A stretch of DNA of 64,000 nt, from assembly GCF_963506605.1 (NCBI RefSeq), contig NC_083284.1, positions 24,490,001-24,554,000 on the forward strand, in the 5' to 3' direction. Each line of letters begins with the position of its first letter. Position 1 is the first letter of the stretch. Below the pieces are notes generated by a model. The model was not told the DNA's origin and did not search any database. It saw only the letters and a list, made by a program, of their open reading frames with translations. This stretch comes from Zootoca vivipara. Lineage: Eukaryota. This document shows positions 14,181 through 49,949 of this stretch, in pieces. Position numbers and translations under genes: made by a program.

Positions 14181-14776
14181 TTCAGCTGCTTTAGCTAGCT
14201 ACATTAAAGGGCTTGAATCATGTTCTGCATTTGCTGGCTTCTGAAGGTTAGAATAATGATAACCTAGTTGAGGAATATTCCCCAGAGCCTTCTTGCTCAT
14301 TGGAGGAGTCTGAAGTCTACTCCTCAGAGTCTGGGTGGTGATGACAGCGTTGTTGTTTAGATACCACCCTTCCATCTGAGGATCACAGGGCAGTTTACAA
14401 TACTTCCCTGGGTTTTAGCAGGTTGGGTGCAGGATCCAAGCATAGGTCCTCCCCTAAAACCAGGCTCTGACTTTTCTTCTGAGCTACTGCTGGGCTGGAT
14501 CACTAAATCTCTGAAGTTTATTGGCCCAAGGCCATGACAGTCTCCATGCATTTTTTTTAAACAATAGGGAAAATAGCACCAAAACAGGACTTCAGAGTTT
14601 TAAGGATTCTGCAACTGTTTGAAATGTTTGAAAATGGTCTATACTATATAGTAAGATACCTGAATATTCTCTGTCCATAGGTATTATGCCATCCTGTGTA
14701 CGGTGGAGCCTGCTTAGCAAATCTCAATACAAAACCCACAATAAAAACAAACATTTCCTTGGTGGTATACATCACT

Positions 14777-14782
14777 TTTATT
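14777..14782 (-). terminator. Candidate polyadenylation signal (AATAAA), CFI copy A
   Basis: AATAAA on the minus strand ~500 nt after the stop; conserved in copy B. Confidence 0.55.
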
Positions 14783-15283
14783 TGAATATACAATGTTTAC
14801 AAAAGAAATGCAGTAACTGTTTACAGAAGCACACATACTTTAAAATTTATTAAATGCTAAATTTCACAACTCATAACTGATGATCTTCTGCAGCATAATC
14901 CAGCCAGAGCGGAACACTTTTAACTTTCACAGATGAGAGATGGGAAATCAATGGCCTTCCACGTGTTAATGGACTACAGATCCCATCATCCCTGACTGCT
15001 GGCCATGCTGGCTGGGGCTAATGGGAACTGGAGCCTGAAACATCTGGAGGGCCAAAGATTCCTCCCCCATCCCTGCCACAGTTTTCAGCAGGCTTAAAGC
15101 TGCAACTGCACACATATTTACTTGGGAGTAAGTTGCGTCTTCTGAGTAAACTTAATCGTGTTGTACATTTCTCTCATTGAAACCACTAGGACAATGCTTC
15201 ACTTTGGCTGGATTGAGCCACAAGTTCTGTAGCCTATCTTTAGTTATTGCCAAGGCAGAAAGAGGTGATATTTACATTCAAAA

Positions 15284-18200
15284 TCACAAGTTATATCGCG
15301 AAATGTGATTCAGTCCAGTGTGACGGCCAATCCAACTGAAATAATGTGCCACTTTTGTATAAACCCCAGGGTGTCCTTTTTCGCCACAATTTTCACCCCA
15401 GCTCACAACACCCCAAACATACCCTACATTATTAGAGTCAAAACAAACTAAGGGTCCTCCTGAGTCACCTTTACAGGAATCCACAGAGCCATCATGCGTA
15501 CCTGAAAAGAGAAAAACCAAGTACAGTAAGTTGTTGAATGCATATTTTAATGGCAAGGATGCCACAGGTGCCCTCACCCACAACAAAGGGAATTATGGGT
15601 GCAATTTCATTCCCAAACTATATTATTGATACTGGATACAGTCAAAATAGAGCAGAAGGCCCAAAGTGTGTGTACAACTATGACTTCGTGGTGTTTTTTT
15701 ATCTTGTCCATAGCTCAGGCATTTTTTTTTTTTGGCCTATTTGGGACAATTAATCAATTTCCCCATATCCAGAGCCTGAGTTCATTGAGCCTGATCCTTG
15801 ACAAAGACTGACATAATTATTCAGTGAACTGGTGTTATCTTGGATAAAAGGTAAAGGTAAAGGGACCCCTGACCATTAGGTCCAGTCGTGACCGACTCTG
15901 GGGTTGCGCGCTCATCTCGCATTATTGGCCGAGGGAGCCGGCGTATAGCTTCCAGGTCATGTGGCCAGCATGACAAAGCCGCTTCTGGCAAACCAGAGCA
16001 GCACATGGAAACGCCGTTTACCTTCCCGCTGTAGCGGTTCCTATTTATCTACTTGCATTTTGACGTGCTTTCGAACTGCTAGGTTGGCAGGAGCTGGGAC
16101 CAAGCAACGGGAGCTCACCCCGTCACAGGGATTCGAACCGCCGACCTTCTGATCAGCAAGCCCTAGGCTCAGTGGTTTAACCACAGCGCCACCTGGGTCC
16201 CAGGTTATCTTGGATATTATCTTTAAATGTTGATGGTTTAGGGAGCAATCCAAACTCCTGCTAGTCTAGTGGAGTCACGTGGGGCAATGGGGCCATGGCT
16301 GCATCCACAGCCCTGCCATGCATGACAACCAAGGCAGAAGGGAGCAGGCAGATAAACATCCCCTCCTCCTGTTAACTTCTTAATACTCTTGTGGGGAGCT
16401 ATTTGTGTGTTTGTTTTGTCTCAGACGCTGATATGTGTTGACCCATCTCTGCTTACTTAATACAGTGGTACCTCGGGTTACAGACGCTTCAGGTTACAGA
16501 CGCTTCAGGTTACAGATCCCGCTAACCCAGAAATAGTACCTCAGGTTAAGAACTTTGCTTCAGGATCAGAACAGAAACAATGCTGCAGCGGCGGCGACAG
16601 CAGCGGGAGGCCCCATTAGCTAAAGTGGTACCTCAGGTTAAGAACAGACCTCCAGAACGAATTAAGTTCTTAACCCAAGGTACCACTGTACTGGCTCATG
16701 AGTTTGCATCCAGATGGGTGTCAAAAATGATACAGTTCATATTCACCTGCGCATTCCATGCCTTCAAAGTACCGGTTCCCGTAGATTTCAGAACAGTTTT
16801 CCATTAGAGAAATGTACCCCCACTTAAGGCCAAATTGCGTTGAAAATTCTAAAGAAGAAATAAATAACAGTTTGTGTTTTATTTATTATTTCATTTATCA
16901 TTTATTCAATTATTAATTGTTCACAATTCAATACTTTCATTCACTGTCCATAAACTTATCCCATTTCAACCGTGGTTGGGTAAATCTGATTTTTTAAGTA
17001 TCTGATGAGACTTTTTTCCAATGCAGGACAAAACAACTTGCATTTTTTTTAAAAAAAAAAGTGAAAATTTCACATAAATTTTTAAAAGTGAAAAATTTCA
17101 CATAAATTTCATTCAAGTCTCTGAATGAAGGAGTTGTGAAGACTTGGCCAACATGGATTTCCAAACCAGTTAGCAACAGTTATCTTCAAAGAGCTCACAC
17201 TGTAGTAGCTGAAACTTGAAGAGACTCCCAAATCCACCTGCGGATTCCATCCCGGAGAATTTCACAGTCCCTTTGAGAATTTTGGAATGTAATTCCTTTT
17301 CTCATGACTTGATACAGGATGGTGGGGGAGGGGGAAGAAGGGGGGGTGAGATGTTCAGCTGAGACCAATAGGAAATGCTAGTGACACAGCTTTTAATGAG
17401 CTGTTATATAGAAGAGTTGAAAGGAAGTGCTTTTGTAGCTTAGCAAAGTATGAGGCCAGAAGAGATGAGGAAATTGTAACCATAATTCAAAGAAGTAATT
17501 AGCCTATTCCATTTACCTTCATTGAGTCCCCAGCCGGACACTTTGCACTGGTGGCCACCTTTGAACATGTATTTTGACCAAGGGACACAGACTGGCACAG
17601 AGTCACGCGGGTAACATGTTGATTGGTTCTTGTCCCTGGGTTTCATCTCCAGCAAAGCAATGTCATTTTCATATGTTTTGGTGTTGTACTTCTCGTGAAC
17701 TATTACTTTAACTACTTGAAATGCTTCTATTATATCTTCCTGTTTTACTGTGTTCAGCATTCCAGTCCATACCAAATAAGTATGTGCACGGCTCTCTCTG
17801 CAAAAAAGAAATGTGTTTCAAGGAGTGCAAGCAGAAACACAAACTTTGGATTATGAAACATTTTCCAGCTACTGAAACAAGTAGTGAAATGGATTATATA
17901 CACAAGCGCCCACTTTTAGCAATAGACTCCTGCACAGTTTTCCATGCCTTTATGAAATCCATTAGATTAAATCCATTAGATTAGAAACGCTGTGATTTAG
18001 CAAAAATAGCTGAGGCCTGGCTACATATTTATTTATTTATTATTGCATTCATTTTAAGATTAACTTTTTTAAAAACCCACTTAATTATTTGCATTTCTGG
18101 AAAAAAAATCCACGGAAAATGGGACAATCAAACAATTAAAAAACCTGAAGTTCAACCGACAGTGTGTCTCTCTAATTTCAGTTGCGAGGGAGTTCAACCG

Positions 18201-47833: not shown

Positions 47834-47902
47834 GGTGAAGAGTGTCTGTCCGTATTTAGAATATTTTCTTTCCCTAAAACTTTTCCCCAGTCTCAGACTT
47901 CT

Positions 47903-47948
47903 GCTATGTGTTTAATTTTTAACCATTAGCAAATATTTATAAAGATGG
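47903..47948 (-). promoter_or_regulatory. CFI-B proximal promoter: HNF1-like and FOXA-like sites
   Basis: Same motifs as the copy A promoter. Confidence 0.5.
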
Positions 47949-49949
47949 TTCTGAAACAACTACGGAGAACATCCATGTGCATGGATGGTTCTCAGCTCTT
48001 AGACAAGATCCTGCTTAAACCTCAGTTCACTGTTCACTGCAAAAATGATAAGAGAAGCAAACAAGTAAAAAGACTGGTAGATCCCTGAAGGGATGTGCTG
48101 TCCTGTGCTGTCCTCTCACACAACTTTCTTAATACTCTCACTTATTTATGTAGCTGCTTTTTATTGGCATGCTATTCTGGAGCAGAAGAGAATGGATGAT
48201 TTGCATATTTAACTGACAGGGGATTAAGATTTCAAGGTTGTGTTTGGCCAGTTGCTCAATGCCTTGCCAAAGGGTAAAAAAGGTATTTGTGCACTAAGCT
48301 CTGGGAGTGCCAGTTTCTGGGAATGGCTAAGCAACTAGCCCAAAAAAATAAACGAATAGTGGGGCAGTTCAAAAAAGAAGGTTTGTGTTTTAATTTTTCT
48401 CCTTAGGAACATAGGAAGCTCCCTTATACCGAGTCAGACCATAGGTCCATCTAACTCAGTGTTGTCTGCAGCCTGTAGCAGCAACCTCTTCACATAAGCC
48501 TTTCCACCAGGGGCCGCCTCCAACTTTATGGTACAGTACATAGTTCTTGCCCCCTCCCTTTCAGCTGTACTGATACTTGGGGGACCACACCATAAAACAG
48601 TTGTAGGGGGAGTGGAGCAACAAATGCTCTGTGTCAGGGCTTTTTTTCAGCTGGGACTCACCGGAACTGAGTTCCTGCACCTGAGGGCGGGCACCGTTGC
48701 CATTATAAGAGAACAAGGTTCATGGTGAGTTCCGGCACCTCTTTTTCTGGAAAAAAACACTGAGCACCTTAAGACATGCAAGAAAACGGGTTACCTCCAG
48801 GAATTTTGAAATGGGTTTAGTGACCCTGGAAGTCTGCATCTCTACATTCTGTAACTTCTCCTGCTGTACGCCAATAGCTATTTGGAAAGAACATTTCTGT
48901 TTTGGCCATGCCTGCTTAGAAATAAGCACCACTCAGTTCAGTAGGGATTAATCTCAAATCAGGGTGCAGAAGACTGTGGGCTTTGTGTGATTACAATACA
49001 AATATTTCTTTCACTTTAAAAACACAGCTGATTTCTCAGTAATTCTTATCACTGATGATTAGGAAACAAGGAAGTAAACAGAAAATTCGCCCTACAGGTA
49101 TTTCCCGCACTTTGCCTGATTTAGACTAGTAATGTATGCGACTCATAAAAACTTTTCTATTGTTTCCGTCCAAAAAATTCCCAGCAATCAAATGCAGTCA
49201 GGTAAGCTTCTTAATAACTAGCATTCAAAACACTAGTTTGGAAATAATTTTCGCATGTAAAATTCAAAATAAAGCGAATAGGTATGTTCAGATATTTCCA
49301 TAACAATGCCCGCAGCTACAATAGACATTCTTATTCTTACTGTTATAATAATTTATTTTCTTCTTCTTATTATTAAGGATTTTCTTGATTTACAAAGCTA
49401 TACAATGCAATGTCTCTCGTAACATTTTTGCAAATCAGTTTCATTTGTTGAGACATTGGGAAGAAAGGGGAAAAGATATAGATGGGGGAGAGATGGGTGG
49501 GGGTGGGTGATTTGATTTATTTTATGATACATAAGGAAACACCAAACGATTGAGGAAAAAATAGAAAAAGTTTTTTTCTCTGGAACCTGATTCATTAGAT
49601 GTTTGTGACTACGATTCTCATCAGCCCCAACCGGGGATACAGACATACATTTTGTCCACAGCAGTTGACAAAAAGATTCACTTTGGAAGTTTCGCTTAAA
49701 TTTTCGGAGGGGTAGCAAGTGTCCCACCGGTGTGGCAGCACAAACTTATTGCGACACCATCTTCCATCAGGTGCATGCAAACTACACAGCAATGTGGAAA
49801 CAAGCGAATTACGAAAACAGACACGGTGTTCATTTTTTTAGCAATATGATTTATTACAAGTTGCGGCTTCTGCTGCAGCCAGTGACATCCGAACTGTGCT
49901 AAATGCCGCAAATTTATAAAATGCTGCAATTTTCTCTGTGTGTGTGTGT

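Follow-up and report, generated by a model that had tools for sequence, protein, structure and literature searches.

Complement depends on one protease alone, factor I (CFI), to inactivate C3b and C4b, and human disease results from its inactive forms. What, then, does a second CFI gene do beside a canonical one? The question is raised by a 64,000-nucleotide stretch of the Zootoca vivipara genome (assembly GCF_963506605.1, contig NC_083284.1, positions 24,490,001 to 24,554,000 of the forward strand; hereafter the window, whose own numbering is used below), in which a CFI pair occupies tandem units at 14512-32610 and 32611-49668, arranged head-to-tail and flanked by PLA2G12A and GAR1. Duplication alone is ordinary; what makes the locus noteworthy is an active-site change whose human counterpart has been tested, and the recurrence of altered active sites in squamates. 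Tandem duplication has left canonical factor I (copy A) plus a second intact gene (copy B), and we lean slightly towards the explanation that copy B encodes an intact, likely secreted, processed and non-cleaving protein that is kept under selection as a competitor or decoy.

The two CFI genes and the protease chain of copy B

Copy A (15284-30825, minus strand) has 14 coding exons, with its ATG at 30825, its stop codon at 15284 and a coding length of 1773 nt for 590 residues. Copy B (33397-47833, minus strand) has 13 coding exons, with the ATG at 47833, the stop codon at 33397 and 1740 nt for 579 residues. Every intron of both copies is GT-AG, and the sole stop codon in each frame is the terminal one. 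The translations are identical to the RefSeq Z. vivipara proteins complement factor I (P0070) and complement factor I-like (P0061), which bears out the statement in the preliminary description that both frames are open. The domain order FIMAC/Kazal, SRCR, two LDLa and trypsin was found in both products with Pfam. This order, the position between PLA2G12A and GAR1 and the grouping with CFI orthologues in a tree assign both genes to the CFI family. Like vertebrate factor I (human 2XRC and 5O32; 9B3H), both products have the FIMAC-SRCR-LDLa-LDLa-trypsin order, a basic processing site and the His-Asp-Ser triad, together with the S1 Asp. The protease motifs of copy A are canonical (IVGG, TAAHC, DIAL, GDSGGP and SWGENC). 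Copy B retains the triad, the S1 Asp, the GDSGGP motif, the RQKR processing site and all 43 cysteines.

Each copy had been described as complete. The full domain set, a 5' flank of about 1.8 kb in each unit and three AATAAA signals downstream of each stop codon agree with this. However, copy B is not a full structural copy, because the acceptor of exon 8, a remnant of which lies at 40146-40176 (minus strand), was changed from AG to AC at 40176-40175. This exon of 30 nt is alternatively spliced, and some isoforms of copy A skip it too. In the 500 bases preceding the ATG, 483 of 499 aligned bases are identical between the copies. A palindrome resembling what we take to be the HNF1 consensus (approximately 30905-30920 and 47913-47928, minus strand) lies about 85 bases upstream of the ATG and is identical in both copies; it would fit liver expression of both.

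The protein differences between the copies are concentrated in one chain. The exons of A and B show 68 differences and their products differ at 44 residues, 32 of which are in the 243-residue protease (light) chain; over the same chain, copy A differs from the Lacerta protein at 17 sites. When the differences were polarised with four lacertid proteins as the reference, 23 light-chain changes were assigned to B and 5 to A, with 4 unassigned (p=9e-4), and 8 heavy-chain changes were assigned to B and 3 to A (p=0.23); over both chains, 5 were unassigned. Four changes in B (Q361H, G374S, G554R and V565I, A numbering) fall on sites at which 86 of 86 non-squamate CFIs agree, whereas copy A alters no invariant protease position that other squamates retain. 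Q361H and G374S both lie in exon 11 of B (37494-37600, minus strand). In the substrate-binding strand Ser-Trp-Gly (214-216; chymotrypsin numbers, here and for the other active-site positions, are those we presume to apply), which is intact in A, copy B reads SWR, AGG (33505-33507, minus strand) replacing the GGT codon of a glycine found in all 86 non-squamate CFIs. By alignment, G554 corresponds to mature residue 529 in the human protein, which is precursor residue 547, and Gly216Arg of copy B is the equivalent of human G547R. In addition, IVGG has become IAGG in copy B, V348A adjoins the activation N-terminus, one N-glycosylation site is lost, and several of the changes are multi-nucleotide. 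Exon 12 of B (36102-36382, minus strand) encodes an altered loop, residues 396-416 of A, which holds 9 of the 32 light-chain differences (p=4e-4) but which varies more than other sites even among canonical squamate CFIs (4.4 versus 2.6 residues per site). Vertebrate factor I therefore differs from the Zootoca pair in that two genes are present here, one of them with Arg at Gly216 and three further invariant-site changes. The proposal of a two-gene complement-regulator system, which implies two working regulators, is not borne out in that form, the B protease being altered at invariant positions, one of them equivalent to a human loss-of-function site.

Human G547R is slightly reduced in secretion and completely processed, and its cleavage of C3b and C4b is almost nil (PMC11792236). 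From this and the other light-chain changes, copy B is likely impaired in C3b/C4b cleavage. Judging from the human data, its product would be secreted and processed at RQKR without cleaving either substrate. The human type 2 variants, namely G547R (PMC11792236) and I340T, H380R and S525A (PMC9832388), are secreted and inactive; the latter three bind C3b:factor H and compete with wild-type factor I, inhibiting it by 15-20% at equimolar levels (PMC9832388), and this inhibition suggests a route to a competitor role for B. In people such variants are rare alleles of one gene, whereas in Zootoca the change belongs to a gene of its own, next to an intact copy and accompanied by about 30 other changes. 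In bovine factor I, W411-V426 forms the interface with PmSLP, a bacterial lipoprotein that recruits factor I, and the same region is bound by factor H (PMC12080921). Loop 396-416 (A numbering) of B is the aligned counterpart of this surface, and a decoy role would fit changes on a surface that factor H shares with a microbial recruiter. The mechanism would be that copy B is made as a protein which still binds C3b and its cofactor, or else the microbial proteins recruiting factor I, and that selection keeps it for this binding. When short transcript-derived proteins were searched for the B protease, no match among the best 120 of 220 exceeded 76% identity, a weak negative, as relatives are clustered at 90%. 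Action specifically as a competitor or decoy is put forward by analogy and more tentatively. In this respect B might be likened to the factor H-related (CFHR) proteins. CFHR1-5 arose by tandem duplication of a complement regulator; they retain its binding modules, lack regulatory activity and act as competitors or decoys. They derive from a cofactor and have lost whole domains, whereas B derives from the enzyme and keeps all domains.

Altered CFI copies in other squamates

The squamate set consisted of 42 full-length CFI proteins from 34 species; the truncated Rhineura copy and unnamed and mislabelled records were left out. Outside Zootoca, two-copy status was taken from database gene models, protein records and contigs of equal length, and in Phrynosoma also from consecutive locus tags. 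Two full-length CFIs were found in 8 of the 34 species (Zootoca, Hemicordylus, Candoia, Liasis, Erythrolamprus, Thamnophis elegans, Anolis and Phrynosoma). In each of them a canonical CFI is paired with one altered at His57, Asp102, Ser195, Trp215 or Gly216, and only an altered protein was retrieved for Varanus and Gekko kuhli. At least one of these five positions is altered in 10 of the 42 squamate proteins and in none of the 86 non-squamate ones. A triad residue has been lost in the Candoia, Liasis, Anolis, Phrynosoma, Erythrolamprus and Varanus proteins, whereas B keeps the triad; the second copy of Rhineura is truncated. Intact altered paralogues persist across species in three cases, Candoia with Liasis, Anolis with Phrynosoma, and two Thamnophis species. 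When five positions were dropped (four changed in nearly all squamates and one terminal), the numbers of invariant light-chain sites changed in the altered and the canonical copy were 4/0, 6/1, 20/0, 3/2, 4/0 and 21/0 in six lineages, and heavy-chain invariant sites were barely changed in the altered copies. The duplication had been called lineage-specific. The sister grouping of A and B apart from Lacerta and Podarcis accords with this, whereas the second CFI in eight other squamates (seven full-length, one truncated) shows that having two copies is not peculiar to Zootoca.

A constraint placing eight altered proteins in one clade of a 27-protein tree was rejected (approximately unbiased test, p=3e-9). 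Gly216 is changed in 6 of 8 altered lineages, and Trp215 or Gly216 in 7 of 8 (permutation p of about 5e-4), two of the lineages having been chosen by the Trp215/Gly216 motif itself. Gly-to-Arg at 216 occurs in Zootoca, two Thamnophis species, Varanus and Gekko kuhli. A wider form of our explanation would be that lizards and snakes have repeatedly turned a second CFI into a secreted, non-cleaving decoy for factor-I-recruiting microbes or a tunable antagonist that raises complement activity, the factor I equivalent of the CFHR proteins; this is speculative and, in our judgement, rather doubtful. The same reserve applies to the associated picture, in which the Trp215/Gly216 strand is often hit and Zootoca represents the youngest, still triad-intact stage.

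Two proteins named plainly "complement factor I", Anolis P0016 and Varanus P0020, are altered forms, and the canonical Anolis protein is a separate record (P0077). Name-based orthologue sets may therefore pick an inactive copy. P0082, labelled as giant panda CFI, falls within the snake clade and is probably a mislabelled record; it was left out of the counts.

Selection on copy B and alternative explanations

To a neutral lineage carrying half of the observed A/B divergence, approximately 5.8 frameshifts, 2.3 stop codons and 2.4 cysteine losses would be expected; none was observed in B (joint p of about 3e-5). Amino-acid-changing divergence in the heavy chain (13/801) is lower than the divergence of its introns (227/5537; p=2e-4), and B has no private change at 79 invariant heavy-chain sites. 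These sequence comparisons suggest that B is fairly likely to be still under selection as a protein.

Several observations weigh against this explanation. Homopolymer indels make the neutral expectation too high, and it takes no account of damage mended by conversion from A. In the light chain, amino-acid-changing divergence (39/573) is not above that of its introns (140/2251; p=0.63), the dN/dS of 1.34 is based on 8 silent changes, and the ratio of amino-acid-changing to silent changes is not significantly different between light and heavy chains (p=0.12). Relaxed selection therefore fits equally. The light-chain excess on the B branch, for which 26 changes were counted by hand and intron divergence was split equally between the copies, is modest, with p=0.04 when local introns are the reference and 0.0015 when the whole unit is. 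The dominant-negative effect of the human variants, described for I340T, H380R and S525A, is small. From its sequence, the much-changed cofactor-binding loop of B could abolish the very binding that a competitor requires. As for convergence, when only lineages defined by a gene pair were counted, Gly216 was changed in 4 of 6 (p of about 0.07) and Trp215 or Gly216 in 5 of 6 (p of about 0.03).

The evidence that the B light chain has diverged as far as its local introns also fits a young duplicate whose protease has been freed from selection and is decaying to a pseudogene, with its frame and heavy chain conserved by conversion from A. Identical A/B runs of up to 260 bp and the lower divergence of heavy-chain introns (4.1% versus 6.2%) suggest such conversion, and A-type exons 3-5 in older RefSeq models of B, the loss of exon 8 and of one N-glycan site, an older copy at the locus that did decay to a relic and the truncated second copy of Rhineura all point the same way. 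However, B has no stop codon, frameshift, cysteine loss or splice-site loss in its constitutive exons, its light chain has taken 23 changes against 5 in A and differs from A at more protease sites than A does from Lacerta, and intact altered paralogues persist across species elsewhere. We consider decay unlikely, though it is the chief alternative. A protease with changed specificity or a new cofactor requirement would account for the retained triad, S1 Asp, GDSGGP and RQKR, and for several multi-nucleotide changes clustered on the cofactor-binding loop. Yet Arg at the Gly216 position nearly abolishes C3b/C4b cleavage in the human protein (PMC11792236), V348A near the activation N-terminus and G374S compound Gly216Arg, and parallel paralogues in boids, pythons and iguanians have lost the catalytic His and Ser outright, which makes this explanation quite improbable. 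It is less probable still, to a marked degree, that A and B are two working inactivators of C3b and C4b kept for dosage or a tissue split; two open frames and the near-identity of the proximal 5' flanks would agree with this, but four invariant protease positions are changed in B and none in A, and the human equivalent of the B change is nearly inactive (PMC11792236).

If the preferred explanation, a secreted and non-cleaving B kept under selection, is true, the pair would point to an undescribed mode of complement tuning or pathogen baiting that has apparently arisen several times in one clade. With 44 residue differences, A and B lend themselves to direct comparison by standard assays of cofactor activity and binding. 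Should B only be decaying, the locus would remain of modest interest as a clear example of recurrent gene birth and death.

Carp factor I duplicates plausibly arose from genome doubling and not in tandem. More than one factor I form per species is indicated for fish (common carp; shark) by titles cited in PMC9569754. A closer parallel within squamates is C9, another complement gene that has been duplicated in tandem, with one copy degenerating in some species (bioRxiv 2022.04.21.489004); C9 differs in being an effector, and the second C9 of Z. vivipara was reported to be degenerate in the same source, in whose available text the term "CFI" is absent. No description of squamate CFI duplication or of inactive paralogues was found in a literature search whose scope excluded most subscription journals and supplements. 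The preliminary description had left it undecided whether the pair had been reported; both Zootoca genes are already annotated in RefSeq, and genome papers may list the pair in gene-family tables.

Duplication units, assembly support and age

Self-BLAST gave a single collinear chain of 14512-32613 against 32611-49668, mostly at 85-97% identity and interrupted by private segments, and together with its breakpoints delimited unit A (14512-32610, on the PLA2G12A side) and unit B (32611-49668, on the GAR1 side). The self-comparison that had been suggested as a check thus yields a collinear chain with sharp breakpoints, and with the Pfam hits in the flanks and the GT-AG gene models it corroborates two head-to-tail CFI genes between PLA2G12A and GAR1. 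The junction (32611-32613) is TGA, a 3-bp microhomology that also occurs at the left and right ends. An origin by repeat-mediated unequal crossover is not favoured, the junction having this microhomology and no shared repeat. In the genome of 1.44 Gb (48 contigs), the CFI FIMAC exon was found at only 2 places, both within the window, and so was a 1.7-kb test stretch.

Non-coding divergence between the units is 4.7% (476 of 10,145 aligned bases). There are seven private segments in A and seven in B, and two of the three searched genome-wide are dispersed repeats along their length. Divergence of this size, with such segments, is far above that expected for two haplotypes. The dispersed repeats are a 2.4-kb one in A (23160-25593) and a 1-kb one in B (40191-41194); a private repeat of A (15834-16203) has a 13-bp flanking duplication, and one of B (37663-38021) a 9-bp one. 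Repeat matches cover only about 270 of 1201 bases of the A-private segment 29141-30352, which may therefore be a deletion from B and not an insertion. The several private transposon insertions attributed to each copy are supported in the form of private repeats. The repeat at 23160-25593 has a strong G skew and many near-full-length genomic copies at 84-88% identity, with a cluster on contig C18.

Sequencing runs were examined for the share of sampled words of the stretch 32400-33700, which contains the junction and the last exon of B. Among the matches listed, 11 of 23 runs (6 samples, 3 studies) contained at least 0.70 of the words, the best-matching run possibly being the source of the window itself. 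No run recorded as RNA was among these matches; two runs presumed to be RNA had shares of 0.42 and 0.30 and were not counted as evidence. Only 210 of the 1271 31-mers of this stretch are also present elsewhere in the window; therefore, copy A alone cannot produce such shares. Both genes are present in two RefSeq accession series, with B-type protease chains identical in both. In isoform X5 of the CFI-like gene (P0065), a model that was reproduced exactly, exon 13 of B is spliced across the junction to an acceptor at 31771, the cryptic last exon lying at 31728-31771 (minus strand) in the 5' flank of A. If based on RNA, this isoform would show both the tandem order and transcription of B. The older RefSeq CFI-like models P0072, P0058 and P0059 are without exons 1-2 and join A-type exons 3-5 to B-type exons from 6 onward, reflecting either assembly collapse or a gene-conversion polymorphism.

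In protein trees, including a quick one, A and B group as sisters with Lacerta and Podarcis outside (support 98 and 99). Between the two heavy chains there are 12 residue differences, compared with 28 and 34 when they are set against Lacerta agilis. Silent divergence in the protease exons is low too (dS 0.053). Copy number in relatives, also suggested as a check, was assessed from protein records, which gave two CFIs in Anolis and several snakes and one gene each for Lacerta agilis, Podarcis muralis, P. raffonei and P. lilfordi. The sisterhood and closeness of A and B and the single lacertid records indicate that the Zootoca duplication is likely to postdate the split from Lacerta and Podarcis. 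At 13962-14180 (minus strand) lies a 220-bp relic of an older CFI copy, which comprises exon 11 with the intron after it and has about 70% identity to both A and B, a stop codon and a frameshift. An earlier CFI duplicate was therefore once present at the locus. The relic translation (RGERTT) is a mix of Rhineura-like and Podarcis-like residues, and the relic has Ser at the G374 position, like B and the boid and python paralogues. Runs of 219-260 bp that are identical between A and B stand out from the 4.7% background at 17346-17605, 30711-30943, 31778-32007 and 20767-20985; one spans exon 1 and the proximal 5' flank and another part of protease exon 12, and they are possible recent gene-conversion tracts.

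Two further alternatives concern the reality and the origin of the pair. That the second copy is an artefact of two haplotypes joined in tandem would agree with the different 5' end of an older RefSeq model of B. It is hardly credible in view of the divergence and the multi-kb private repeats, a non-repeated junction with microhomology, B-specific words in several samples and both genes in two accession series, and we regard the tandem duplication as practically certain to be real. A single old squamate CFI duplication, with conversion making each pair look young, would explain two copies in nine species over five squamate lineages, shared changes such as IAGG, PWH, CSG and PGIY, the grouping of dead boid and iguanian copies in a light-chain tree (0.93), the relic at 13962-14180 and, as a parallel, squamate C9, whose paired copies are not resolved from each other in trees (bioRxiv 2022.04.21.489004). 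Against it stand the low silent and intron divergence throughout the Zootoca locus, protease exons included, the sharp breakpoints and the one CFI retrieved for each of four other lacertids. The altered copies were also rejected as one clade, though conversion would yield the same result. An old origin is accordingly judged improbable, but not strongly so.

The left neighbour of the pair is the first coding exon of PLA2G12A (11665-11877, minus strand; Pfam PF06951, PLA2G12), the A-type label being our assumption from human synteny, and on the right lie the first coding exons of GAR1 (52682-53209, plus strand; Pfam PF04410, Gar1). The order PLA2G12A-CFI-GAR1 is one we take to be common to human and Zootoca. 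Beyond GAR1, an exon of a rhodopsin-family receptor (Pfam 7tm_1) was found at 61552-61878 (plus strand), presumably of RRH by human synteny.

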